59,880 bases of DNA from Escherichia phage vB_Eco_SLUR75. The stretch lies in the sequence record LR025197.1. One strand, 5' to 3'. The first letter of the stretch is position 1. Each line of letters opens with the position of its first letter. The position numbers were made by a program, and so were the translations under genes. The notes under the pieces are model-generated. The model was not told where the DNA came from and made no database searches. It worked only from the letters and a program-made list of their open reading frames with translations. Of the stretch, positions 490-46,431 are shown piece by piece.

Positions 490-741
490 ATGTGCGACTC
501 CAGTGCAAGCGCTGCACCCAGCACCTCCAGCAATGTGGTTACAGAGGTAAATGCAATGCGATTAGGCCCATATCGCGGGTATTATGGTCGGGCAGCATGG
601 AATGACGCTACTCAACGTTTTGAAGGCTGGATTATCTGTCCGGAACGTGTTAAATTTCATTCCGTAAAAGAGAAAAATATCGTTCTTAATTTTCAAAAAT
701 GTGTCACTAAATATGTAGAGGAGCAAGAAGAATGCGTGTAA
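490..741 (+). CDS. Hypothetical early protein (83 aa)
   Basis: ATG preceded by strong RBS GAGGAGG; first gene after the 5' noncoding region. Confidence 0.5.
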   Translation: MCDSSASAAPSTSSNVVTEVNAMRLGPYRGYYGRAAWNDATQRFEGWIICPERVKFHSVKEKNIVLNFQKCVTKYVEEQEECV

Positions 742-974
742 AAGACGAGCAAAAGACAGTTGACTACTTCGGAATGCAAATTGTTGTTCCGGAATGGGTT
801 AAATGGCTTGCTGTCGATGGTGACGGCAAATTATTCGGTTATGAATGTGAGCCCGACATTTTAGTTAATGAAGATTGGGATGAATGGTACAGTGAAGAAG
901 GTAAATGCCGCTGCATTACAGAAGTCATCCTTGAAGAAGAACATTGGTCACAAACCTTAGTGGAGCTTTTTTAA
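732..974 (+). CDS. Small protein, paralog family member A (80 aa)
   Basis: Shares WLAVDGDGKLFGYECEP and C-terminal HWSQTLVEL motifs with ORFs 1316..1618 and 40076..40330. Confidence 0.55.
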   Translation: MRVKDEQKTVDYFGMQIVVPEWVKWLAVDGDGKLFGYECEPDILVNEDWDEWYSEEGKCRCITEVILEEEHWSQTLVELF

Positions 975-1315: not shown

Positions 1316-1618
1316 ATGCTGTATTTAGGAATGGACGAAACTGGACACGCGATCCCTTCTGTTAACAAGGAGACGCGAGTATTTACAGACTATTACGGGT
1401 CTGCTGTCCCTGTTGAGCCCTGGGCTAACTTTATCGCTGTAGACGCAGACGGTAAAGTACATTGTTATGACGCCAAACCTTCTTGCTATGAATCTGGTAA
1501 GCAATGGATGCTTGGCGTATACGGTTTGCATGTTCGCTACTGCGGCGAAGTTGACATTGAAGGTGTGGACTGGCGCGATACGCTAAGGGAAATCAAAGAA
1601 TATAGGCTTAACCCATGA
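1316..1618 (+). CDS. Small protein, paralog family member B (100 aa)
   Basis: RBS GGAGG; motifs FIAVDADGKVHCYDAKP and GVDWRDTLREI shared with paralogs A and C. Confidence 0.55.
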   Translation: MLYLGMDETGHAIPSVNKETRVFTDYYGSAVPVEPWANFIAVDADGKVHCYDAKPSCYESGKQWMLGVYGLHVRYCGEVDIEGVDWRDTLREIKEYRLNP

Positions 1619-32369: not shown

Positions 32370-32433
32370 TTTGTATCTCCTCTTGTTGTATGCATATATT
32401 AAAACAGACCCGCGAAGGGTCTGCAAGTAGAAT

Positions 32434-34419
32434 TTAGGCGTATCCCATGTCTTCGAGATACTTCTCTGCTTTAGCTATATAAGCATCATAATCTATGTCG
32501 TCCGGCACTTTATCCGGTAGCGTCATGATCGGAACACCTCCCGCGCTACCAGCTACACGGTTGCCCGTGTTAGCATAGATTATTTCAGGTGTTTCTTCAT
32601 TAGTGCTTAAGTACCAGCGTACAACCTTACCCAAAAATTCGCCATTCCATACCGCGCCACCTTTTACCGCACGTAAGATAATGAATTTTCTAATATCGTT
32701 GCAATTGCGTATAGTACGAGAAACAGGCGTACCGTGGGCCAAACATTCACATACAGCTTCCATAATAATCTCACCAGTACAGTTCTTTTGAAGACCTGTC
32801 TTTGCGAACCACCCTTTACGCTTAATTTCAACATTTCCTTCCTCGTCAGGTTCTTTTACTGCAACATAGTTATTGACGTTAGCACTGTACAGCTTGTCAT
32901 AGTAGTTGGATTCCATTTCAAAACCTGTTACGGATTCCCACCACTTGATCATATTATCAACGAAGTCCTGCATGTGGTCCGGATACTTAACCACAATACC
33001 GTCCGTGTTGGCTGAAATTACTTTAACACCATTTAACTCAAATGCTTCAATAAGCATCAACAGTGAAAGCTGTCCGGTTAATGTAACTTGTATCAATAAT
33101 TGCGGCGCGTACAGTACGGACCACATAGACCCCAGCTTACCAAACGATCCGTTGATAACGATCTTCAGCGTGTTGGCTGTGTTTTTGTCCCCTGAGTGCT
33201 TAGCTGCAATACGACGATCTACAATACTCTTATAAACACGAAGGAACGCTGGTCCCAACTGTTCTGGATATAAGCCCTGATTAAGAATGATTGTAGGATA
33301 ATAAGACGTTACGTCAATGTCCCGCTTTTTGATACCAGGCTCTTTACCGTGGCCAGCACACTCTTCGGAGCTATGCAAACCACCAATACCCATACGGTAG
33401 ACACCGTCCGCAATCTTGATTTCAAGACCTGTCAATGCAGGAGGTAAGCTGACACCACCGTTATCGCTAACAATAAAGCGACAGTCCCGAACAATATCCA
33501 AAACACTATTCATCAAAGGTGTTTGAAAACGAATAAAGTCCGGTATGTTGTATACATACTTTGTTCCAGGATAAACTTGCGGACGCTGTGGGCGCACGCC
33601 CGTCAACGCTTGGATTTCGTGCTTAATTACGTCTTCTGCAATTTGTGCATCGGAGCGTGAACGCAGGTCCACACCGTACTCTTGCGACATAATTTCACGA
33701 AGGTGTAAAGGTTCTTGTAATGCAATAAAACATTCTTCCGTCTGTACAAGGTCGTTAATACAGTACCAGCGCACAATAAGCATCTGGTCTTGCGTCAACA
33801 TTGTATTAGGCTTGAACGGTAAATCCTGCATACGACGAGTATGTACACGTCCGCCGTATTGTTTCAAACCGCCGGACCCAGGCAGCACTTCCATGATATC
33901 GATGTGGTTAACGTTCTGCATACGCTTGAGACGGTAACTCTTCAATACATCCGAAGGACGCCAGTCTTCAACGATTATTTTATCAGTTGCGTCTTTAAGC
34001 TGAGCATTAGAGCAGCCGTTAAGCGCAAGCGTAGCAATGGGCATATCGTACCCGTTACCGTTAAAGCTCACGATAAGGAAGTTTGTCATTACCCAGTTAA
34101 GTAGCAAGCAATTCAAACTACAACCGTGATACATCTCGAAGTAGACAACTTTCTTAGTTCGCACTCCGCGAAATGCAATTAAGAAATAATTTGGATAACA
34201 TTCTATATCATATACAAGCGGTTCGCGGTTAATCCATGCTTGAATAAGTTCGTCCTGTGTGTACAGGTTGTATTGGAAGTTCCGCGCTTCCTCAAGGTTA
34301 GGCAAATAATCCGGGCGCTCCCAAGTGCGCTCCGGCGGTAAACGTTTAACTTTTTCTTTCTTTGCTTTTGGCTCAGGCGGTAAGTCCTGCCAAAAGAAAC
34401 CAATAGCATCTGTCCGCAT
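32434..34419 (-). CDS. DNA polymerase, family B, with 3'-5' exonuclease domain (661 aa)
   Basis: Exo I LVYDIECY, Exo II NGNGYDMPI, pol motif A-like DIDVTSYYPT, motif B KIVINGSFGKLG, motif C-like ISANTDGI. Start at M19 of track ORF, overlapping upstream stop as TAATG. Confidence 0.8.
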   Translation of the reverse strand: MRTDAIGFFWQDLPPEPKAKKEKVKRLPPERTWERPDYLPNLEEARNFQYNLYTQDELIQAWINREPLVYDIECYPNYFLIAFRGVRTKKVVYFEMYHGCSLNCLLLNWVMTNFLIVSFNGNGYDMPIATLALNGCSNAQLKDATDKIIVEDWRPSDVLKSYRLKRMQNVNHIDIMEVLPGSGGLKQYGGRVHTRRMQDLPFKPNTMLTQDQMLIVRWYCINDLVQTEECFIALQEPLHLREIMSQEYGVDLRSRSDAQIAEDVIKHEIQALTGVRPQRPQVYPGTKYVYNIPDFIRFQTPLMNSVLDIVRDCRFIVSDNGGVSLPPALTGLEIKIADGVYRMGIGGLHSSEECAGHGKEPGIKKRDIDVTSYYPTIILNQGLYPEQLGPAFLRVYKSIVDRRIAAKHSGDKNTANTLKIVINGSFGKLGSMWSVLYAPQLLIQVTLTGQLSLLMLIEAFELNGVKVISANTDGIVVKYPDHMQDFVDNMIKWWESVTGFEMESNYYDKLYSANVNNYVAVKEPDEEGNVEIKRKGWFAKTGLQKNCTGEIIMEAVCECLAHGTPVSRTIRNCNDIRKFIILRAVKGGAVWNGEFLGKVVRWYLSTNEETPEIIYANTGNRVAGSAGGVPIMTLPDKVPDDIDYDAYIAKAEKYLEDMGYA

Positions 34420-35372
34420 TAGACACGTTCTCCAATTAACACACCGCGAAGATTTTCCCCAAAGAATGCGCAAGGTTGCGGATATAAACTAAAGTCCGCA
34501 GTCTTAACCACATTTTCGAGTAATAACAGGATGTCAATATTGTAAACTCCCGTTATTGATCTGTCCTGCAATACGAAGCTTGCACCTTCCGCATCATCGT
34601 AATGAGTACGCGCTAGACCGTTTTCAATATATACGCGAGGACGATCTTCCGCAAAAGGTTTAATTTTATGCAAGCCCTCAAAAAGACCTGGATCAACAGG
34701 ATGTGCATTGCATTGAACATTTAAAATACGACGAATATCAGGCCACTCCGCATCAATAAGCTGTGTTCGCAACCAGCGACCTTCCGGATAATGAAATGTT
34801 ACATTGTTCTTGCTAACCTGAATATGTGTCGGGTTAGCTTTAATGCGCAGTATTTCTTTAATAGCAACAGACGGTATTATGCAGTCAATAGGGAATTGAT
34901 TACCAAACCAATATTCCGCAATGGTGACGTTATTTGTAGCAAACAGGCTACCGTTATTAATCAGGATACCGCAAGCCCACGGGCGGGACGCATCCGAGCC
35001 TACGAACGGAGCAACGGATTTCACACCGTGTACGAAGCGAGCACCGTCTATTTCGTATAAATCGCCTTCAGGGAATACGTGAGGCGTTTCTTTGTCAATG
35101 CAGCGTATAGCAACACGAAACGGTCCGGACTTGATATTAAGTTTACCGTTAGCCATCATTGTTAACTGTACGGTTTCGTCACAGTTTGAAATAGCTTTAA
35201 TCATAGGTCCAGCTTCGGGCTTGCAATCAATATCCAGCTCAATAGGGCTACCCAGTGCAATAACACCGTTAAAGCCCTGTACCTGTCCATCACGGATAAG
35301 AAAGCTGGTAAGCCCTTCTACCAGTTCCTTTTTAGCGACGGAGCCTTGAACAAATTTAAGAGCGTCTAACAT
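34419..35372 (-). CDS. Hypothetical protein coupled to DNA polymerase (317 aa)
   Basis: Stop overlaps the polymerase start by 1 nt; no recognisable catalytic motif. Confidence 0.5.
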   Translation of the reverse strand: MLDALKFVQGSVAKKELVEGLTSFLIRDGQVQGFNGVIALGSPIELDIDCKPEAGPMIKAISNCDETVQLTMMANGKLNIKSGPFRVAIRCIDKETPHVFPEGDLYEIDGARFVHGVKSVAPFVGSDASRPWACGILINNGSLFATNNVTIAEYWFGNQFPIDCIIPSVAIKEILRIKANPTHIQVSKNNVTFHYPEGRWLRTQLIDAEWPDIRRILNVQCNAHPVDPGLFEGLHKIKPFAEDRPRVYIENGLARTHYDDAEGASFVLQDRSITGVYNIDILLLLENVVKTADFSLYPQPCAFFGENLRGVLIGERV

Positions 35373-35599
35373 TAGCGATCCTCGATTGCTCTAATTGTGG
35401 TTAAATCTAATTCACAGGTTGGAGGGTATCCATAAAGTCCCATTTGTTTTCCTTGTGCATTAAACCATGTACCTGACGGATCCTGCCACTGCTTAGGTGT
35501 CTTGTGGAGAAATACTACTCTGTTTTCACCGTAATAATTAATTCTTACGCCTGTGTGAGTATATTTACGTTTACCTTTTGGTCTTCTTAAGTTAGCCAT
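35372..35599 (-). CDS. Hypothetical basic protein (75 aa)
   Basis: Start/stop overlaps with both neighbours. Confidence 0.45.
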   Translation of the reverse strand: MANLRRPKGKRKYTHTGVRINYYGENRVVFLHKTPKQWQDPSGTWFNAQGKQMGLYGYPPTCELDLTTIRAIEDR

Positions 35600-36519
35600 C
35601 AGAACAACTCCATTACACGATCACGGAATGTGCCGTCATGGGTAGCGTTAATGTTTGCAGCAATTACACCATAAGCCCATAAATTGAAGGCAGCACGTGA
35701 TTCATAGATTGTTGATAAACGTTCGTAAGTGAAACCGTTTTGCTCAAGGTATTTAAGGACAGCGTCTTGTTCAATCTCAGTTAATGTTGAAACATGCTTA
35801 CCAAAATGATGGCGGTCCGGTGACTTATCGGATACGCGCATTGGACCCCACGGAGGAGTAACCACACTTCCAAACGCTGCCGCTTGAATCCAGGAGGATG
35901 AGTCACAGCTATACCACGGGTAACGCTCCATAATGGTTGTGGACGTAATACCAAACGCATGAAGTTTAATCTTAGCACGTCCGCTACCGTCGCAAATATA
36001 TTTGTCCCACATGCGGTCAAGCCAAGTCTTAAGCGTGTCCGTGGAACGTCCTACCATACCCCCGATAGTGATATATTCGTAGTTCTTCATGTAGTATTCA
36101 AGATAGCGGAAGTCCTCCCCAAAGTGAAAGCAAGGTAACGGTTTAGCACCGCGTGCTTCCATTTCAAGTTGGTTACGGTAGGTTTGCAACGGATCACCGA
36201 TACCATCGAGCACCGACGCCATTACTGCGCCATCTTCTACGCGAAGGATGTCTTTGTTGCGCTTGATGTATTCGCAGTATTCAACAATATCAATGTGAGC
36301 ACCTAACGAGTGCGCGGAGAATGCACCGGAGTCGAGAAACACTTTAGCCCCGTCCGCACGCATTTGATCAACATACTTCTGACGCCCAACGTAGTGGTAG
36401 GATTCCAAAATATGAGGCAGATTGCGCGTGATATTTTTCTCATGCTCTGACAGCTTTTCATAACGCTGCTGGCCAGGCATATATCCGTTCGTGTAAACTG
36501 CTGCCATAAAAACGTTCAT
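35599..36519 (-). CDS. dpdA: DpdA-like 7-deazaguanine DNA transglycosylase, TGT superfamily (306 aa)
   Basis: KVFLDSGAFS motif as I recall for phage DpdA; co-located with the preQ0 synthesis genes. Confidence 0.65.
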   Translation of the reverse strand: MNVFMAAVYTNGYMPGQQRYEKLSEHEKNITRNLPHILESYHYVGRQKYVDQMRADGAKVFLDSGAFSAHSLGAHIDIVEYCEYIKRNKDILRVEDGAVMASVLDGIGDPLQTYRNQLEMEARGAKPLPCFHFGEDFRYLEYYMKNYEYITIGGMVGRSTDTLKTWLDRMWDKYICDGSGRAKIKLHAFGITSTTIMERYPWYSCDSSSWIQAAAFGSVVTPPWGPMRVSDKSPDRHHFGKHVSTLTEIEQDAVLKYLEQNGFTYERLSTIYESRAAFNLWAYGVIAANINATHDGTFRDRVMELF

Positions 36520-36749
36520 TTTTGGAACGGTCCTCCAAACTGATCAATTAGTTCTAAAGTACGCCACGCTTCATTAAATGCTTCGTCCGCTCGATGTTTA
36601 GCGTCAATAAGCTGCTGCTTTAAAACATCTGTAGGCGCGTCATTCTGTATTGCAGAGCAAGCATCCGCAGTACCTGCTTTAAGCTGGTAGAATGCTGTCT
36701 CTAAGATTAGTTGTCTTGACATATTTCCTCCAATGACTAAAAAGCCCAT
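36516..36749 (-). CDS. Hypothetical protein (77 aa)
   Basis: ATGA-type overlap with dpdA start. Confidence 0.45.
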   Translation of the reverse strand: MGFLVIGGNMSRQLILETAFYQLKAGTADACSAIQNDAPTDVLKQQLIDAKHRADEAFNEAWRTLELIDQFGGPFQK

Positions 36750-36793
36750 ATCAGTATTATGACCGATATGGGCTTGATCTGTAAAGCTATCTA

Positions 36794-37435
36794 TTATTTA
36801 CAAGCTTCGAGAAACTCCCGGCGCCATTCTTTGCCAATATCGCTACCATGCCACAGTTCTGTAGCGCCCCGGAACGCTTTGGTAATAGTAGAGCTGCCGC
36901 ATACCTGCTTAACACCGCGCGACTCCATGCACATATGCTTGGCGTCAATATAAACACATACAGCTTTCGGGTTTAAATGCTCCTGAATAGCGTCTGCAAT
37001 CTGGTTAGTAAGACGTTCCTGAACTTGCAGTCGACGACTAAAAGCATCCACAACGCGAGACAGCTTACTAAGCCCAACAATCTTCCCATTGGGGACATAA
37101 CCAACAACAGCATGACCGATGATAGGAGCCATGTGATGCTCACAATGACTGTATACAGGAATATCACGGACAATGACCATTTCATTGGTGTTTTCCGCCC
37201 CATCCTCAAAGGTTTTAAACAGACCAGCGATATCTACATCGTAACCGCTAAACCATGTAGCATAAGCTTTAGCGACACGGTCTGGAGTCTCTGCTAATCC
37301 TGGACGTAATTCAATGCAATCTTCAATCTGAGTTAGTAAAGTATGCACCGCGCGAGCAATACGGAATTGAGTACCTTCGTTATCAATAGTAAATTTTGGC
37401 ATGGTTTGCAGTTTCCTTGTTGTTAATGTGGTCAT
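36794..37435 (-). CDS. folE: GTP cyclohydrolase I (213 aa)
   Basis: [20 protein letters not shown] and RLQVQERLT motifs match E. coli FolE. Confidence 0.9.
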
Positions 37436-37436
37436 A

Positions 37437-37973
37437 TTACAGGCTATAGTTTACGTGACATTTCGAAGTTTCTTCGATGGTGCATTCTACAAGTTGAACA
37501 CCATGTTCGTCAAGCAGTTGCGGACCAATCACGTCAACCATATATGCAGCTAAGTTTTCCGCAGTTGGGTTGAATGGTAAAGCTACCAATGAGCTTAAGA
37601 AATGCTCATGGTCTTCATGTTCCAGAGGACAACTCGGGCGACTTGCTGCAATTTTCAAAGCGTCAATCAAATTATCACGATTCCAATGCAGGAACTTATG
37701 ATCCCAATTATCTTCCAGCCACTGGCAGAGCGTAGTTTTAACCACACTAAAGTCGATAACTCGGCCCACATGGTCCAGCTTAGCTCGCTCTTTTACTTCG
37801 ACGTTGACAAGACCTCCGCCCATTTCAATTGGTACTTCTTTAACTGTTTCTTTCGGCGCAACCTTAAAGTGAAACTTATAGTTGTGACCGTGAAGGTGAC
37901 GACACTTGCTTTCATGCCCTACAACACGATGTCCAGCGCAAATTTCATGTGAACGAATTACTGTATAACTCAT
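37437..37973 (-). CDS. queD: 6-carboxy-5,6,7,8-tetrahydropterin synthase (178 aa)
   Basis: [22 protein letters not shown] (CxxH...C..HGH zinc/catalytic motif). Confidence 0.85.
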
Positions 37974-38560
37974 TTTAATACCTCTTTAGACTGTTCAATT
38001 TCTAACGCACGCTGCGCCGACGCAATAATGTCTTTCAAATCTTCTACCACATGCTTATGACCGCGTTCGCCAGGCTGCAACGCCTTTTTAATCAAATGTT
38101 GTAAAGCTGGGTTAGTTGTCTTCCAAGCTTCCAAGACATCATACACGTCCACGATGCATTTTACAACATTCCCATTTTGATCTTTACCATAAATAACTTT
38201 CTGATATTTATTCATGGGAATTTTAGACGGTTCGTATTTCGTAAAAACCGCACCATTAAATGTATTACTTATGCTTATTCCAGAAGAAGGTTGATTGTAC
38301 AATCCGGAGCGAGTGTTTTCGCTAGCCTGTTTGACGTAATCATCCGCAACGATATAGCGCCAGGCTATAATATCTTGAACTTTATAAGGGCTATTTTCAT
38401 CCATAGCTGAACGCCCTTCCATAGCCCAATCCCATCCATGTAATAGATTCTTAACGTGTGTGCCGTTGCGCAAACGAACTTCAAACTTCTCATTACGAAG
38501 AAAAATAGGCATTCCTTTACCGTCGTGTTGGTGCCAAATTTTATTCAAATTATCTTTCAT
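37970..38560 (-). CDS. Hypothetical protein inside the 7-deazaguanine cluster (196 aa)
   Basis: First ATG (M16) of track ORF, which begins with TTG; 2 nt after upstream stop. No QueF motif or other signature. Confidence 0.5.
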   Translation of the reverse strand: MKDNLNKIWHQHDGKGMPIFLRNEKFEVRLRNGTHVKNLLHGWDWAMEGRSAMDENSPYKVQDIIAWRYIVADDYVKQASENTRSGLYNQPSSGISISNTFNGAVFTKYEPSKIPMNKYQKVIYGKDQNGNVVKCIVDVYDVLEAWKTTNPALQHLIKKALQPGERGHKHVVEDLKDIIASAQRALEIEQSKEVLK

Positions 38561-38562
38561 TT

Positions 38563-39042
38563 TTACGCTCTCGCTGTACGTGAATGAACTTCGTAAACAA
38601 CCCAAAGGATAGCAGACGCTGTGAACTTACTTAAGCTCATTGCTACCATCGATCCCGGATTAACAATACCTATAATACTTAAGAACACAATGGAGTCAAT
38701 TGGTACAGCTACCAAAGAGCTGATAAATACTCGTTGATGGAAAGGCTTCTTGGTGACCGTGTATACTACATAGTCCGCAAACTCACTAAGCGCAAAAGAC
38801 GCAACGGATGCAACTACAACCGCAGGATTACCGAACACCCAGCTAAGGATGCAACCAACAATCATTGCAGGGATGACGCCTTTGCCAGCGTTACGCTGTG
38901 CGTAATCACGCAGAACAAAGATAATGCCTACAAAGAAAGCCATCATGGGGACTACGCCAAGTGGCGTATTAAGCATCGGAAGGTAGGAAAAGCCCAGGTT
39001 TACGAATGTAATTGCAGCCAGATAAGCAACGATAAATTTCAT
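38563..39042 (-). CDS. Integral membrane protein, possible queuosine-precursor transporter (159 aa)
   Basis: Four to five predicted TM helices; located between queC and queD. Transporter assignment is inference from context only. Confidence 0.3.
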   Translation of the reverse strand: MKFIVAYLAAITFVNLGFSYLPMLNTPLGVVPMMAFFVGIIFVLRDYAQRNAGKGVIPAMIVGCILSWVFGNPAVVVASVASFALSEFADYVVYTVTKKPFHQRVFISSLVAVPIDSIVFLSIIGIVNPGSMVAMSLSKFTASAILWVVYEVHSRTARA

Positions 39043-39162
39043 ACTTTTGTTCTCCAGTTTTAACAGCGTTATTCGCTGGTTGTTGGGTTTAAAAGCTTTA
39101 GTAGTATAGTTGGGTTACCGCACCCTAAACAATGCGCTAGCGGTGCGGTTTTCGCGGTAAGA

Positions 39163-39870
39163 TCAAGCTTTGCTAATAAATTCGCTGTACCCTTTAGCAC
39201 GAAGTTTACACGCTGGACATTCCCCGCAACCGTATCCCCAGTCATGCAGAGTACGACGGACGCCATTATAGCACGTATGGGACTGCTCAATTACTGTGGT
39301 TAAGAAACCAACCTTATCCGCCAGCTCAAACGTTTCCGCTTTGTTTAAACGCATAAGCGGAGTAACAAAATGGATATCTGTTTCATATCCAACGTTTAAG
39401 GTAGCTTCAAGTAGATCTACAAACTGCTGACGGCAATCCGGATAACCGCTATAGTCCGTTTCACAAACGCCTGTAACCACATATCGAGCTCCAACCTTCT
39501 GCGCGTAGGCGTGCGCGGTAGTCAGGAAAAGAGCATTACGGTTTGGCACAAAGCTTGCCGGAAGGTTGTTGTGCTGTTCGTGATGTTCGTTAACATCACC
39601 TTCATTCCCGATTAAAGCACTATTGCCGATCTGTTTCAAAGCAGGTAATTCAAAGACAACAAACGGGACATTGTGCTCTTTACAAATTTGATTAGCACAA
39701 GCCAGCTCAATGTTATGACGTTGACCGTATGCAAAACCGATAGCGTAGACTTTGTCATAGTTATTAAGTGCAAGACCTAGACAAGTCACGCTGTCCTGGC
39801 CGCCAGACAGGACGACAACGGCGGAGTTATGATTTTTTACAGGGAATACCAGTTTATCTAATTTATTCAT
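39163..39870 (-). CDS. queC: 7-cyano-7-deazaguanine (preQ0) synthase (235 aa)
   Basis: PP-loop VVLSGGQDS, GVCETDYSGYPDCR, C-terminal Cys cluster CYNG...GCGECPACKLR; aligns with E. coli QueC. Confidence 0.9.
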   Translation of the reverse strand: MNKLDKLVFPVKNHNSAVVVLSGGQDSVTCLGLALNNYDKVYAIGFAYGQRHNIELACANQICKEHNVPFVVFELPALKQIGNSALIGNEGDVNEHHEQHNNLPASFVPNRNALFLTTAHAYAQKVGARYVVTGVCETDYSGYPDCRQQFVDLLEATLNVGYETDIHFVTPLMRLNKAETFELADKVGFLTTVIEQSHTCYNGVRRTLHDWGYGCGECPACKLRAKGYSEFISKA

Positions 39871-40075
39871 TTACTTCACCTTTAATATCACAAGGGTTAA
39901 TTGTTACGTTAGACATTACAATTGGGTGATTACGCGCTCCAATTGTGCTAACGTAATTAATATCTAATTCTACATGCACGCCCTGCATAGTAGCATGGGC
40001 AATTGAAGAATTAAGTTTTTCTACCAGCTCAGTGATCATTTCCTGATGCTGTTTCGCTTCTTCCAAAGTGATCAT
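39863..40075 (-). CDS. Hypothetical protein (70 aa)
   Basis: Overlaps queC start by 8 nt. Confidence 0.45.
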   Translation of the reverse strand: MITLEEAKQHQEMITELVEKLNSSIAHATMQGVHVELDINYVSTIGARNHPIVMSNVTINPCDIKGEVNE

Positions 40076-40330
40076 TTAAACCTCCGTTAATGTTTGAGTC
40101 CAGTCTAAGCCTTCAAGATCTACATCAGCTATTTCATCGTACTCGTAAGCTTCCGGATCTGCTGGCAACCATCTATCAAAGCGATGGCTAAGTTCTGGAG
40201 GAATTGCTTCATATCCCCAAACCTTCCCATCCTTGTCGGCTGCCAGATAATCAACTCGACTTGGAACGGTTAAAGTGACACCACAAAAATTAACATCTTT
40301 AGTATGCACAACCTGGCTTAACACACGCAT
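40076..40330 (-). CDS. Small protein, paralog family member C (84 aa)
   Basis: YLAADKDGKVWGYEAIP and GLDWTQTLTEV motifs shared with paralogs A and B. Confidence 0.55.
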   Translation of the reverse strand: MRVLSQVVHTKDVNFCGVTLTVPSRVDYLAADKDGKVWGYEAIPPELSHRFDRWLPADPEAYEYDEIADVDLEGLDWTQTLTEV

Positions 40331-41037
40331 TATTCCACTCCGATATATTTGTGAACCTGAAGCTGCAACGTGTAACCGTGTTTCATACAGCTTTGGACAA
40401 CGGCTTGGATATTACTGTGGTTAAGGTCTTCATCCTGCTCGTCCATTGGCTGTAAATATATCTTACCCTTGAAACCCTTCGGAGGTCTAGCGATAAATGG
40501 CGTAGCTTGATGATCTAATGCTTGAAGAGGTAAACCATCTTCCACGTTTACACAGCACGCTTTAAGTACATATTTAAATGCATTAGCGCGGCGCAGCACA
40601 GAAGGATGAATCTTTGAGGTCTTGGGACTACATACAATTACAGGTAACTGGGAAAAGTTCTTAGGTAAAGGCATAGACCCATTAGTTTCAATTTGCACCA
40701 AATAGCCGCGCGATAACAGTTGTTCAATAAACGGGTTAATTTGCTGACGGAACGGTTCACCCCCAGTGATAACCACAAGTGAGGTGCTATTACCTGATTC
40801 CAGCTTACGGCTTTCGATTAAACGCATAATATCGACAATATGATAAAGACTACGACCAACAGTATAATCGGTATCACAGCCAGGGCATTGCAGATTACAC
40901 CCAGCAAGACGCACAAATACAGCAGGTTGGCCGCAGAATGGACCTTCACCCTGAATGGTAGAGAATACCGAATGCACGTCTAAATACATATCGTTTTCTT
41001 TAGAACGGGACTCGGGAGCTTGTTGATTAATATTCAT
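40330..41037 (-). CDS. queE: 7-carboxy-7-deazaguanine synthase, radical SAM (235 aa)
   Basis: FSTIQGEGPFCGQPAVFVRLAGCNLQCPGCDTDY aligns with E. coli QueE; strong RBS GAGGA before the ATG. Confidence 0.85.
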   Translation of the reverse strand: MNINQQAPESRSKENDMYLDVHSVFSTIQGEGPFCGQPAVFVRLAGCNLQCPGCDTDYTVGRSLYHIVDIMRLIESRKLESGNSTSLVVITGGEPFRQQINPFIEQLLSRGYLVQIETNGSMPLPKNFSQLPVIVCSPKTSKIHPSVLRRANAFKYVLKACCVNVEDGLPLQALDHQATPFIARPPKGFKGKIYLQPMDEQDEDLNHSNIQAVVQSCMKHGYTLQLQVHKYIGVE

Positions 41038-41059
41038 CTTAAATCCTCTAGTGAAAAAG

Positions 41060-41081
41060 AAAGCGCCTCATTGGGCGCTTT
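41060..41081 (-). terminator. Terminator hairpin downstream of KA-rich gene
   Basis: AGCGCC-tcattg-GGCGCT stem; on the reverse strand it is followed by a T-rich run. Confidence 0.5.
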
Positions 41082-41106
41082 CATTATAACGTGATATGTT
41101 TTGATA

Positions 41107-41919
41107 TTACAAGCCGTTCAGGGCTTCCGGTACTGGCATAGGTACGCGACCAGTTACACCATTAAACTTCTTCCAACGTGCATACTGAGTTTTAACAGTA
41201 TCTTCGTTCAGACCGTGACGACCTGCCAGATTCAGAACATAAGAGATTGGAGCAGGCTGACCCAGCGTAGCGCTAATCTGATCCATCAGGGCCCAGGCAC
41301 GACCGCAGGAAGTTTCAGGTTGCGGACGACGAACACCATTCTGTTCAGGCATACGGTTCGCTTCTTTCGCTTTTTCACGTTCAGCTTTTTCGCGGGCTTT
41401 TTCAGCAGCCTTTTCAGCCTGTTTAGCAGCGCGGATCTTGTCTTTGAAGCCTTTGATAGACGAATCCAGTTCGTCAACCATGCTCTGAGCAGCAGTTACT
41501 GCACCGGACAGATCTTCACCTTTGGATTTTTTAACAACTGCTTTCAGATCTTTCAGAGCATTCTTTAAATGCTTCAGCTGTTCGGAACCCTTAGATTCTG
41601 CTTCCGTAATCTGTTCAACAGTGCTTTCATCGGTAATACCGGATAAAGCAAACTTCACGGTTTCAACTGCCTGGGAAAGAGCGGTAAATTTATTTTCCGC
41701 TTCAATACGAATTTCAGCTTGTTTCTTTTCAGCGGCAGCTTTTTTCTCTGCTTCTTTTTTCTCTTTTGCTACGCGTGCAGCTTCAGCAGCAGCGGCTTTT
41801 TTAGCCTCTGCGTCGTTAGCAGTAGCTTCTTTCTTTGCAGGCTTAGCAGATTTTGCAGCGGCAGCAGCGGCTGCGGCAGCAGCGGCTTTCTTATCTTCAA
41901 TATTACTCATTTTCTTCAC
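41107..41919 (-). CDS. Lys/Ala-rich histone H1-like protein with conserved C-terminal domain (270 aa)
   Basis: N-terminal KKAAAAAAAAAAAKSAKPAKKEA and KEKKEAEKKAAAEKK repeats; C-terminal domain shares a motif with ORF 57541..58122. Confidence 0.6.
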   Translation of the reverse strand: MKKMSNIEDKKAAAAAAAAAAAKSAKPAKKEATANDAEAKKAAAAEAARVAKEKKEAEKKAAAEKKQAEIRIEAENKFTALSQAVETVKFALSGITDESTVEQITEAESKGSEQLKHLKNALKDLKAVVKKSKGEDLSGAVTAAQSMVDELDSSIKGFKDKIRAAKQAEKAAEKAREKAEREKAKEANRMPEQNGVRRPQPETSCGRAWALMDQISATLGQPAPISYVLNLAGRHGLNEDTVKTQYARWKKFNGVTGRVPMPVPEALNGL

Positions 41920-42591: not shown

Positions 42592-44568
42592 TTAGAACGG
42601 GACGTAATCCGGATCATCTACTTGTACAGGGTTAACCACATTGTTCACCGTTATGCCTTGCGTATTCTGCGAAACAATATCGTCCCAGCTTACATCATCG
42701 TTATAGCTCGGACCTTCTGTTGTTCCATCCTGCCCGTATACTTTAACCTGAATTGCTTCGTCGTCCTGTGGGGCTTCAAACTTACCGAAGCACGTACCGT
42801 CATAATCATAGTTCAATATCTCAGGCCACTTCTTATTGGTATGAACTTTGATGTATTTTGGTGTTTTAAGCATTGCAGCAACATCAAGAGCTTCTTCTAT
42901 AGTTTGTGGTAAAGGTAAATGTGTCCTTTTCTTCCACCATGCGACAGCTTTACGACCTGCCCAGTCCCCATGAAGCAGAGCTACCCATTCGCTGAATATT
43001 TTACTACCGCAATAATAAGTCACCTTCATTGTTGGAGGTTTAGAGCTGTCATTGCGTTTAGTATGCTTTGCATAAGTAACATGCGTAACTTTGAAGTCTT
43101 CAACTACTGGAATATCCTGCTTGATCAGGGCTTCCGTACTTGCAGCTTTCTTGAGTTTGGTCTGGAACTTAAACTCATGACCGCAAAAGCCTTCTTTAAC
43201 GTAATCCGTCCCGCGTAGCCTAAATCCTTTCAGATATAATTGTTGAACTTGTTCCTGTGTGACGCTGTCCATTGGGATTGGTGCGAAGCCACCGCAATAG
43301 CGAGCGGATGCATGATTATACGACCCACATACATCGCATTCTTTAACCGGAGCAGTACCAGCACCTTTTTCGCCAGGGCGCTTGGGTTTAACAGGGTCGT
43401 TAATAGGGCCCAAACGGCGCGTATTACCGCTGAAATCCAGTACAAGGCAGTTCTGCTTGGGGCTTGCCGCAATAGCTTGTAAGCGCCCCTCCTGCGTGGA
43501 AAGATCAAAGCCCTCCGCGTACACCGGACGCGTACCGCGACCCAGCATCTGGACCCATAGCACCGCCGACGCAGTGGGGCGGAGCATGATAATTAAGTCC
43601 AGCATTGGATGATCAAAACCTGTGGTTAAGACGTTATTGTTAGTTAATGCTCGAAATTCACCGCGCTTAAACTTTTCAATAATCTCGTCACGTTCTTTTG
43701 CATCAAGCTTAGAGTGAATACATCCACAGCTAATACCCATATCGTTCAGCATATCACACGCGTCTTTAGCGTGTTCAATACCAGAACAAAATATAAGCCA
43801 GCTTTGACGGTCTTCACCACATTCAATTGCTTCCTCAAGTGCGCGGAGTGTTGCGTCATCGCGGTTTACCGCACTTTGCAGCTCACTCTGGATAAACTCA
43901 CCGCCGCGTTTACCTACCCCGTTGAGGTCCAGCTCCATCTTAGTACGCTTTGGCACAACCGGAAGAAGATAACCTTGTTCCAGGAACCAGTTGAAGGCTT
44001 CCGGAGTAGTTGCATCAAACGTTACCTTATCAAATAACGCATCATCGTCTTCGTTTTCCTTAACAATTGAACCATACCCCAGTCGATAAGGTGTAGCAGT
44101 AAGACCGATAATTTTTAAGTAAGGGTTAACTTCACGCAACGCTGCAAAGAACTTCTTATACATTGTTGCATCACGCGGACTAATAAGATGCGCTTCGTCC
44201 ACAAAAATAAGATCAACTTTGCCGAACTTTTTCGGATGCTTAGCAACGGACGCAATCCCTGCAAAGGTAATAAGATTATAGACTTCTTTACGCTTCAAAC
44301 CCGCGCTGTAAATACCTGCTGGCGCTTCGGGCCAGACTTTCATTAATTTATCATAGTTTTGTGCAATTAACTCTTTGACGTGAGTTAACATCATTACGCG
44401 CTGGTTTGGATACCATTTGTAAAGCAGATCGAGGAACCCCGCGATAACGAGCGATTTTCCTGTCCCTGTTGGTAACAGGATCAAAGGGTTCCCCGCGTTA
44501 CCCTTTTCAGCATCAAAATAGCGGAATACGCTATAAACTGCTTCCTGTTGATAATCGCGGAGTTGCAT
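42592..44568 (-). CDS. SF2 DEAH-box DNA helicase (658 aa)
   Basis: Walker A LLPTGTGKS, motif II FVDEAHLIS, Q-motif-like DYQQEAV; C-terminal Cys pairs. Confidence 0.7.
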   Translation of the reverse strand: MQLRDYQQEAVYSVFRYFDAEKGNAGNPLILLPTGTGKSLVIAGFLDLLYKWYPNQRVMMLTHVKELIAQNYDKLMKVWPEAPAGIYSAGLKRKEVYNLITFAGIASVAKHPKKFGKVDLIFVDEAHLISPRDATMYKKFFAALREVNPYLKIIGLTATPYRLGYGSIVKENEDDDALFDKVTFDATTPEAFNWFLEQGYLLPVVPKRTKMELDLNGVGKRGGEFIQSELQSAVNRDDATLRALEEAIECGEDRQSWLIFCSGIEHAKDACDMLNDMGISCGCIHSKLDAKERDEIIEKFKRGEFRALTNNNVLTTGFDHPMLDLIIMLRPTASAVLWVQMLGRGTRPVYAEGFDLSTQEGRLQAIAASPKQNCLVLDFSGNTRRLGPINDPVKPKRPGEKGAGTAPVKECDVCGSYNHASARYCGGFAPIPMDSVTQEQVQQLYLKGFRLRGTDYVKEGFCGHEFKFQTKLKKAASTEALIKQDIPVVEDFKVTHVTYAKHTKRNDSSKPPTMKVTYYCGSKIFSEWVALLHGDWAGRKAVAWWKKRTHLPLPQTIEEALDVAAMLKTPKYIKVHTNKKWPEILNYDYDGTCFGKFEAPQDDEAIQVKVYGQDGTTEGPSYNDDVSWDDIVSQNTQGITVNNVVNPVQVDDPDYVPF

Positions 44569-45543: not shown

Positions 45544-46431
45544 TTACTGCTGCCACGGCGGGACTGCTGCTTGTGCCGGATGCGGTTCAGCTTGCTGCTG
45601 CGGCTGAGCTTGCTGCTGAGGTGCTGCTGCCTGGCCCGGCTGTGCTACCTGCTGCGCCCACGGCTGCTGAGCTGCTTCCGGTGCTACTGGCTGTTGTACC
45701 GGAGCTTGCTGCACTGGCTGCTGAGGTGCTGCGTTTTGAGCAGGATTATCCCACGGCTGCGGTGCGGCATTCTGCCACGGTTGTGCTGCTGCGCCCTGCT
45801 GTGGTGCTTGTTGCTGCTGCACAGGCTGCTGAACTGGCTGCTGTTGCTGCACCGGAGCTTGCTGCTGTACAGGCGCTTGCTGTTGCTGAGCAAACGGGTT
45901 AGCTGCTGGTTGCTGTGGTGCTGCGCCCGGGAAAGCTGGCTGCTGAGCTGGCGCACCTGCACCGAACGGGTTAGCTACTGCCGCTTGAGCACCCATTGCT
46001 GGAGCACCTGCTTCTTTTTCCGCATACTTAACCGGATCGTTGATGTTAGCATAACCGTTAGGCTCGTTGCTGTCTTCATAACCTTCCTGAGAACGAACTT
46101 TCAGACGCAGGTTCAGCGGAATGTTATGCAGTTGAGCAGGAGTATCCCAGCGAATTACGCCAACCGCATGGGAAAGCGCGCCCAGTTGCTCGTAAGCGAT
46201 ACGCACGGTATCTTCGTTATCGTTGATAACGTTATAACGAGCGAAGATTTTACGACCTTTAGCAAAACCATCAATGATGCTAAACGTTACCTGGATCGCC
46301 ATACCGCCATTTTTGGTCGCTTTGAACTCAGACGCTTCAATTACCGCTTTATACCAACCTTTTGGCAATGCGCCATAAGAAGGTGCTTGATAGCTGCTCG
46401 CGTCAAAAGAGAATTTAGTTGGCATAGTCAT
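45544..46431 (-). CDS. Putative ssDNA-binding protein (DUF669-like) with Gln/Pro/Ala-rich tail (295 aa)
   Basis: Adjacent to and coupled with the Sak4-like ATPase gene; C-terminal low-complexity QQAPVQQQ tail. Confidence 0.4.
   Translation of the reverse strand: MTMPTKFSFDASSYQAPSYGALPKGWYKAVIEASEFKATKNGGMAIQVTFSIIDGFAKGRKIFARYNVINDNEDTVRIAYEQLGALSHAVGVIRWDTPAQLHNIPLNLRLKVRSQEGYEDSNEPNGYANINDPVKYAEKEAGAPAMGAQAAVANPFGAGAPAQQPAFPGAAPQQPAANPFAQQQQAPVQQQAPVQQQQPVQQPVQQQQAPQQGAAAQPWQNAAPQPWDNPAQNAAPQQPVQQAPVQQPVAPEAAQQPWAQQVAQPGQAAAPQQQAQPQQQAEPHPAQAAVPPWQQ

Follow-up and report, generated by a model that had tools for sequence, protein, structure and literature searches.

A phage gene cluster for deazaguanine DNA modification raises the question of what the small genes lodged within it do: do they serve the modification, or do they only share its operon? 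We address this question for Escherichia phage vB_Eco_SLUR75 (LR025197.1), of which a stretch of 59,880 nucleotides (nt), called here the window, was analyzed. An earlier note, made from the letters of the window alone, had listed seven open reading frames (ORFs) in or beside folE, queC, queD, queE and dpdA as lacking any recognisable signature and had proposed that they act with the modification or replication machinery. All seven were found, on the minus strand (Table 1). We hold with moderate confidence that this region corresponds to the dPreQ0 operon already known from phages of the CAjan type, that two of the seven ORFs can be identified, as a sliding clamp and a YhhQ-like transporter, and that the other five, named here by their length in amino acids (aa) as p70, p75, p77, p84 and p196, are accessory cargo carried in slots outside the base-exchange chemistry. 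The lack of a signature thus holds for these five and does not hold for the 317-aa and 159-aa products.

The identity of the locus is the starting point of this reading. Positions 34419-41037 align over their full length with Escherichia phage vB_Eco_SLUR76 at 97.8% nucleotide identity, and with about 30 other members of Seuratvirus (Queuovirinae), including CAjan, Seurat, slur01 and WildeMaa (BASEL collection), at 92-96%; taking these relatives together, coverage is 84-100% and identity 92-98%. On this basis, we assign the window to a Seuratvirus coliphage of the CAjan type. The minus strand reads helicase, two hypothetical genes, queE, small ORFs, queC, yhhQ, an ORF of 181-196 aa, queD, folE, a small ORF, dpdA, a small ORF, clamp and polB, and the gene string is identical in annotated relatives. 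Phages of this type have dPreQ0-modified DNA, with about a quarter of G replaced in CAjan. The order and content of the window's genes match the dPreQ0 cluster described for CAjan and Seuratvirus (Hutinet 2019, PMC6884629; Kot 2020, PMC7544227), and the differences are only alleles and insertions or deletions in slots, for example the p84 allele, p77 being carried or not, and a 62-aa ORF that slur01 and WildeMaa have in addition behind p70. The CAjan cluster comprises 12 genes, of which folE, queD, queE, queC, yhhQ and dpdA are assigned and the other six are not (PMC7544227). The earlier note therefore restated a published open item while counting two assigned genes as unknown, and by itself adds little.

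Table 1. Positions, in window coordinates, of the ORFs, domains and signals discussed in the text.
Feature	Position	Strand	Basis or remark
Predicted beta-type sliding clamp (DNA polymerase processivity factor), 317 aa	34419..35372	-	phrog_947, TIGR00663, Pfam DNA_pol3_beta_2
p75, 75 aa, basic (isoelectric point (pI) 9.9), between dpdA and clamp	35372..35599	-	1-nt overlap with both neighbors
DpdA C-terminal tail FRDRVMELF-COOH, candidate clamp-docking motif; not among the seven ORFs	35602..35628	-	Alignment
p77, small, acidic, slot between folE and dpdA; likely 68 aa from 36722	36516..36749	-	GGAGG and cluster lengths
p196, 196 aa: N-terminal small beta domain, hypervariable linker, conserved C-terminal domain	37970..38560	-	AlphaFold2 model, alignment
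PALQHL domain, p196 residues 117-196: beta hairpin and three helices	37973..38212	-	AlphaFold2 model, alignment
Predicted YhhQ/COG1738-like queuosine-precursor (preQ0) transporter, 159 aa	38563..39042	-	Vut_1, TIGR00697, hydropathy
p70, 70 aa, acidic, slot between queE and queC	39863..40075	-	Overlaps queC start by 8 nt
p84, 84 aa, phrog_1972 member	40076..40330	-	1-nt overlap with queE
80-aa paralog of p84	732..974	+	blastp 36% identity, E = 6e-10
100-aa paralog of p84	1316..1618	+	blastp 30% identity, E = 2e-5
Terminator-like hairpin directly after polB	32404-32424	-	Consensus scan, pattern match only
Terminator-like hairpin, 9 bp, 6 GC, T-run, just upstream of queE	41059-41082	-	Consensus scan, pattern match only
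Promoter-like site upstream of queE	41112-41083	-	Consensus scan, pattern match only

The 317-aa product aligns over residues 1-317 with phrog_947, "DNA polymerase processivity factor" (E = 5e-82). It also matches TIGR00663 dnaN (E = 2e-8; 33.6 bits, below the cut-off of 137.65) and Pfam DNA_pol3_beta_2 (E = 1.7e-4; 22.3 bits, below the cut-off of 27), and chains of the E. coli beta clamp in the PDB match at E = 0.01. Its relatives in SLUR76, WildeMaa and slur01 are annotated as DNA polymerase beta subunit or processivity factor, each of 77 related loci has a clamp homolog downstream of dpdA, and the clamp-polB pair is kept in every complete related locus. Compared with bacterial DnaN and phrog_947, the protein matches the central domain of DnaN and is encoded directly upstream of the phage polB, but it is shorter (317 aa against about 366) and so divergent that it stays below both the Pfam and the TIGRFAM cut-offs, even though its E-values against both models are significant. 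With that reservation on the curated scores, we identify it from its sequence as a divergent beta-type clamp.

The 159-aa product is predicted to be a polytopic membrane protein, with hydropathy windows of at least 1.6 at residues 3-48, 52-93 and 104-137. Its scores against Pfam Vut_1 (E = 9e-6; 26.5 bits, just under the cut-off of 27.2) and TIGR00697 "queuosine precursor transporter" (E = 6.6e-5; 22.8 bits, below the cut-off of 50.95) lie under both curated cut-offs, although the E-values are significant, and its length differs from those of the two models (152 for the domain and 201). Like E. coli YhhQ, it is a multi-pass protein, here situated in a preQ0 cluster, and its homolog in WildeMaa is annotated as the preQ0 transporter YhhQ. 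We therefore regard it as a YhhQ-like predicted preQ0 transporter, already assigned in the literature, which would import preQ0 and so salvage the precursor. The earlier suggestion that precursor uptake is among the roles of the seven ORFs is borne out by this one gene, but deletion of yhhQ in CAjan left the modification unchanged (PMC7544227). Because full modification is kept in that mutant, the importer would be dispensable when de novo synthesis works.

For the remaining five ORFs, we compared related loci, as the earlier note had proposed. The sample consisted of 80 IMG/VR loci whose DpdA is at least 59% identical, retrieved with a DpdA alignment, and of the clusters of 13 isolate phages. 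Running through them is a conserved backbone, queE-queC-queD-folE-dpdA-clamp-polB, into which cargo slots would open between queE and queC, between queC and queD-folE, between queD-folE and dpdA, and between dpdA and clamp-polB. Among the 80 IMG/VR loci, the C-terminal domain of p196, which we call PALQHL after its central motif, occurs in 10 (in Seuratvirus and Nonagvirus only), p70 in 5, p84 in 3, p75 in 3 and p77 in 1; a YhhQ-like protein is found in 5. No gene separates dpdA from the clamp gene in 46 of 77 loci, where the two abut. All five families are absent from the clusters of PBPA162, PaMx25, Vibrio phage 83AMN, BcepGomr, Shewanella phage S0112, Rhizobium phage RHEph06 and Rosebush; PBPA162 belongs to the Pseudomonas Iggyvirus group, which makes the dPreQ0 modification (PMC10484667). 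Conversely, the p84, p70 and PALQHL families all occur in phages without dpdA, and PALQHL and p84 are common there: 726 phage records, most of them without dpdA, have PALQHL and 221 have dpdA, and for Salmonella phages the numbers are 368 and 3. It has also been reported that the DpdA of phage 9g alone inserts dPreQ0 into plasmids in E. coli and that DpdA together with Gat-QueC modifies 9-18% of G (PMC6884629). Taking the rarity of the five families at dpdA loci together with their frequency elsewhere, the variability of the slots and the sufficiency of 9g DpdA, we infer that all five ORFs are cargo restricted to certain lineages and probably lie outside the modification chemistry. The comparison thus speaks against their belonging to the modification pathway, and the proposed link to modification or replication stands for the clamp (replication) and YhhQ (precursor uptake) while finding no support for the other five. 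Work on a minimal deazaguanine pathway can probably leave these lineage-restricted small ORFs out.

The contents of the slots in other lineages include HNH endonucleases, a NADAR-domain protein, DUF3268 and DUF1653 proteins, dUTPase, MazG, alternative alleles and extra ORFs. This arrangement resembles the "moron-like" accessory slots of phage operons, in which unrelated small genes alternate at fixed backbone junctions; known slots of this kind hold homing HNH or counter-defence (NADAR) genes, whereas for p70, p75, p77 and p84 the likeness is one of position. At the junction of folE and dpdA, where the window has p77, HNH endonucleases 48% identical to each other lie in Nonagvirus FritzHoffmann (locus L005, 10331-10825) and in PaMx25 (L013, 9558-10004), an HNH endonuclease is also annotated in slur01 (L003, 5181-5639), and WildeMaa and Hafnia phage yong3 have a different small ORF; homing endonucleases appear to use this junction repeatedly. 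Between dpdA and clamp, Enterobacter phage EC151 has a gene (L007, 8634-9053) that is annotated "swarming motility protein" but encodes a NADAR-domain protein (Pfam, E = 1e-23). The NADAR family includes hydrolases that reverse the ADP-ribosylation of guanine by DarT, and this EC151 gene, which lies in the slot of p75, may be a counter-defence gene. Between queC and queD, where the window has yhhQ and p196, an annotated dUTPase lies in a Vibrio phage (L016, 7594-8088) and a MazG-like nucleotide pyrophosphohydrolase in a Shewanella phage (L018, 1762-2325).

The largest of the five products, p196, is a two-domain protein whose halves differ in conservation. Across 56 Seuratvirus-type homologs, identity is 75% at residues 1-45, 37-45% at residues 46-116 and 91% at residues 117-196. 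Its AlphaFold2 model has a predicted local distance difference test (pLDDT) score of 69 overall and of 80-88 in the C-terminal domain, with a low-confidence, presumably disordered linker at residues 82-109. The protein matches phrog_23361 (E = 5e-100), and in a homology search its full-length relatives were confined to Seuratvirus-type phages, whereas many other proteins share just its last 75-80 residues at 70-78% identity. In this PALQHL domain, Y119, DVYDV (138-142), PALQHL (151-156), K158, K159, G164, R166, H168, K169, D174, D177, S181 and R184 are invariant, so that the conserved block can be written Y119, DVYDV, PALQHL.KKAL..G.RGHK and D..DI..S..RA. The 726 records with the domain, only 33 of them with full-length p196 relatives, were found among 50,697 phage records, and a library of 1.84 billion proteins contains it in 2377 representative clusters (50% identity, E<=1e-3). 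It matched no Pfam model in scans of p196 and family members, no PDB sequence in phmmer and profile searches, and, with the p196 model as a Foldseek query, nothing in the PDB at E<0.28. The domain stands alone in Salmonella phage SETP3 (gp21, 76 aa, encoded beside a repair exonuclease), is N-terminal in a BRCT/zinc-ribbon protein and in gp60 of Pseudomonas phage Itty13, and is C-terminal in many others; elsewhere its gene is flanked by small ORFs or by recombination and nucleotide genes of the early region. When 34 long proteins with this domain were scanned against Pfam for informative fusion partners, a single RNHCP match came back. One Aeromonas phage PhAER-6 protein of this type (L011, 3977-5185) is labeled "DNA ligase," but it consists of PALQHL, a zinc ribbon and BRCT, and no ligase catalytic domain was detected in it. 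Because so many of the invariant residues are polar or basic, the domain may bind a small phosphorylated ligand or nucleic acid. With at least 2377 clusters, strong conservation and no Pfam model, the family is a good target for characterization.

Several observations weigh against reading the five ORFs as cargo, and they would fit ORFs that, in enterobacterial Queuovirinae, are dedicated to assisting the deazaguanine pathway: p70 and p84 could, for example, be partners of QueE and QueC, and p196 could manage the pools of precursor or nucleotides, allowing about 25-30% of G to be modified. The start and stop codons of these ORFs overlap those of queE, queC, queD and dpdA, which implies tight translational coupling. 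p70 holds the slot between queE and queC in Seuratvirus, in yong3, in Klebsiella phage K4PH164, in Providencia phage PSTCR7 and in two further IMG/VR loci, and p84 follows queE in Seuratvirus and some Nonagviruses. A PALQHL-domain protein has been kept in the cluster, despite rearrangement, in every enterobacterial Queuovirinae lineage examined, five in all (Seuratvirus, yong3, Nonagvirus, EC151 and K4PH164). p75 is as strongly conserved within Seuratvirus as DpdA itself (at least 99% identity in 26 records). In other lineages, nucleotide enzymes (dUTPase or MazG) are encoded between queC and queD, and DpdA alone gives only 0.03-0.3% modified G in plasmids (PMC6884629). A lineage-specific helper function, such as raising the efficiency of modification, fits these observations, and we give it a minor share of the probability. 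Against such helpers, however, stand the absence of the families from at least 85% of related dpdA loci, including lineages with the identical dPreQ0 modification, their wide occurrence in phages without dpdA, and the replacement of p77 and p84 by other genes or alleles in near-identical phages; dedicated pathway helpers are thus, in our judgment, unlikely. Far less probable still is that some of the small ORFs are chance reading frames in intergenic spacers. They are short (68-84 aa) and contain no known domains, but each matches a PHROG family (E = 1e-22 to 8e-58), their protein conservation exceeds nucleotide drift, as the identity of p75 illustrates, divergent homologs with 31-55% identity keep the same slot, Shine-Dalgarno-like sequences accompany the start/stop overlaps, and the AlphaFold2 model of p84 is confident (pLDDT 86.7).

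A different reading concerns p196 alone, namely that it is a nucleotide kinase of the T7 gp1.7 type (DUF3310/SaV-like) that feeds phage DNA synthesis, its position in the que cluster being incidental. In a Foldseek search of BFVD, the p196 model matched entries named "SaV-like" (E = 1.4e-4) and "Nucleotide kinase" (E = 0.06, probability 0.87), the matches falling on the C-terminal domain, but names in BFVD are automatic annotations, and no solved DUF3310 structure was matched in the PDB. T7 gp1.7 carries DUF3310 at residues 122-184, and an hhalign comparison aligns PALQHL with gp1.7 colinearly over 75 columns, pairing KY with HY, VDVY with IEVI, and LQHLIKKALQPGERG with LGNILKYRLRAGKKS. A further point in favor is that H, K, K, R, H and K are invariant in PALQHL. 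Moreover, one profile, phrog_23238, matches the DUF3310 part of gp1.7 as well as the N-terminal part of a PALQHL protein from an Acinetobacter phage; because it spans both protein types, the two domains may be interchangeable. They are alike in being small (about 60-80 aa), in lying at the end of phage proteins with variable partners, in the order of their motifs and in their weak fold-level matches; they differ in their conserved residues and show no significant sequence or profile match. In three hhalign runs the probability was only 0.1-2% and never significant; the 75-column alignment scored 0.2% (E = 0.3) with a gp1.7 profile that is shallow and built from T7-like sequences only. Pfam DUF3310 (PF11753), which recognizes T7 gp1.7 at E = 4.5e-23, matches neither p196, nor 37 family members (E<=1), nor 7 divergent members (E<=5), and PALQHL proteins match no nucleotide-kinase PHROG. 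A search for literature on DUF3310 and on PALQHL sequence motifs found nothing relevant. We consider the kinase reading doubtful. PALQHL could be a highly divergent relative of the DUF3310 domain of the gp1.7 nucleotide kinase, but because the profile comparison is far from significant, we treat the resemblance as a lead and have not filed p196 as a DUF3310 member.

Returning to the reading as a known operon with cargo, we see the residual interest of this already-described system in the PALQHL/p84 module family and in the tail of DpdA. Tentatively, and at less than even confidence, we propose that the DpdA tail docks on the phage clamp and, as a separate matter, that the PALQHL domain and the p84 beta module form a large two-part system not described before. 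The second proposal starts from p84, which is predicted to be all-beta (AlphaFold2) and is very acidic (pI 4.3, net charge -10). It matches phrog_1972 (E = 1.3e-22), and blastp and alignment confirmed that it belongs to a three-copy paralog family, as had been noted earlier; p84 and its paralogs share the family motif FG..L.VP.WV.YLA.D.DG....Y...P...W....V.LEG.DW..TL. Within Seuratvirus, the slot after queE is filled by two alleles of p84 (98% and about 49% identity), and some Nonagviruses have a 52%-identical copy after queE, while 9g/JenP-type loci lack it. The family occurs also in jumbo phages and in T1-like Klebsiella phages. In FritzHoffmann a p84 homolog lies two genes from a PALQHL-domain protein, and a p84-like domain was found inside at least 7 PALQHL-domain proteins in a set of about 260 (family hidden Markov model (HMM), E = 2e-8 to 4e-3); the phrog_1972 profile likewise matches the C-terminus of Itty13 gp60. 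Because p84-like domains occur fused to PALQHL, these architectures suggest that the two work together. It would then be reasonable for p196 and p84 to be parts of one modular phage protein system, in which a PALQHL domain is combined with exchangeable beta modules at the N-terminus and p84 is a stand-alone copy of one of them; PALQHL would be an enzyme or a ligand-binding unit of nucleotide or DNA metabolism, and the beta modules would direct or regulate it. A role of the acidic p84 as a DNA mimic in anti-restriction was also considered and set aside as speculation, with no fold match and no support from PADLOC or anti-defence evidence. Of additional note, the 80-aa paralog (732-974, plus strand) ends in TLVELF, like the VMELF of the DpdA tail, and other family members end in TL.E[VL]; this likeness may be coincidence.

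The three remaining products, p70, p75 and p77, are small lineage-specific proteins. Searches of Pfam, NCBIfam, PADLOC and PDB sequences with these three and with p84 and p196 returned nothing significant, only weak sub-threshold matches in Pfam, NCBIfam and the PDB, and in PHROGs the five fall only into families without an informative function; the weak PDB matches of the five (calpain, beta-glucuronidase, "SH3 fold domain-containing protein") look like noise. p75 matches phrog_38388, labeled as of unknown function (E = 8e-58), and tblastn found it in 35 phage records, all of Seuratvirus type, with a 31%-identical form in yong3; inspection of p75 by eye found no canonical clamp-binding motif. 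For p77, the likely start is Met10 at 36722, with GGAGG 6 nt upstream, in agreement with the match to phrog_20065 (E = 2e-40), which begins at residue 10, and with its protein cluster, where 68 aa is the prevailing length. Twenty-one phage records contain p77, and in EC151 its slot is filled by an ORF that is 55% identical to it and has been left unannotated. p70 matches phrog_26258 (E = 2e-50), and slur01 (L003, 8662-8850) and WildeMaa (L002, 8676-8864) have, as their 62-aa ORF, a distant tandem paralog of it (HMM E = 7e-5 before inclusion), which is missing from the window and SLUR76. The label "radical SAM" given to p70 (PHROG 26258; RefSeq NC_028831, NC_028776) cannot be right for a 70-aa protein with one Cys, no CxxxCxxC motif and no match to Pfam Radical_SAM, and has probably spread from the adjacent QueE. 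Judging from the cargo that fills the identical slots in sister lineages, p70, p75 and p77 would most likely function in host takeover or counter-defence.

The first proposal concerns DpdA itself. Its C-terminal tail was aligned for loci L005-L007, L012-L019 and L025-L104. All 67 distinct sequences of clamp-adjacent DpdA end in x-[EDGT]-L-[FY], the commonest endings being QELF (37), RELF (10), MELF (5) and QDLF (5), and the consensus F-x-x-R-[VI]-Q-E-L-F-COOH follows a variable linker of high entropy. Bacterial clamp-binding motifs have the form QL[SD]LF or end in [SD]LF, and by its sequence the DpdA tail looks like a short linear docking motif of this clamp-binding type. A conserved tail was likewise present in 13 isolate phages examined, including a distant Edwardsiella phage, whose DpdA ends in KQSLW and whose clamp gene lies four genes downstream; the DpdA of Rosebush has no such tail, and no clamp gene was present in the 6.4 kb fetched around Rosebush dpdA. 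Alternatively, the tail could be structural. We found no literature linking DpdA with a sliding clamp. The earlier note had suggested that the small ORFs might target DpdA to replicating DNA; if DpdA is so targeted, the sequence evidence points to its own tail and not to them. If the tail does dock on the clamp, dPreQ0 would be inserted at or just behind the replication fork, and the conserved ending thus offers a testable idea of how a post-replicative base-exchange enzyme keeps pace with phage replication.

As for the layout of the operon, the junctions of p84, p70, p196, p75, clamp and polB range from an overlap of 8 nt to a gap of 2 nt, while 120 nt separate queC from yhhQ and 44-71 nt separate folE from p77. 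The translational coupling claimed earlier for all seven ORFs therefore holds for p84, p70, p196, p75 and clamp, and not for yhhQ and p77; the overlap of the clamp stop codon with the polB ATG, also claimed, is there and amounts to 1 nt. Since terminator-like hairpins bracket both ends, queE through polB, comprising the deazaguanine genes, clamp and polB, is probably one transcription unit.

Some genes around this unit have features of their own. The module is flanked by two proteins of low complexity: a 270-aa Ala/Lys/Glu-rich one upstream of queE (41107-41919, minus strand), 40% identical to a Nonagvirus protein, and a 295-aa one (45544-46431, minus strand) with a long C-terminal half rich in Gln, Pro and Ala. 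The superfamily 2 (SF2) helicase (42592-44568, minus strand) ends in DDPDYVPF, and its relatives end in DFDDDIPF, DLDDDIPF or EEDLDVPF. The acidic tip at the C-terminus of E. coli SSB has the motif DDDIPF. This likeness suggests that the helicase mimics the SSB tail and might thereby recruit SSB-binding partners. Finally, the C-terminus of polB (32434-34419, minus strand) is conserved across genera as Y[IL]..[AS]E.[YI]L...G[YW] followed by 0-3 residues, and may be the polymerase's own contact with the clamp or another partner.

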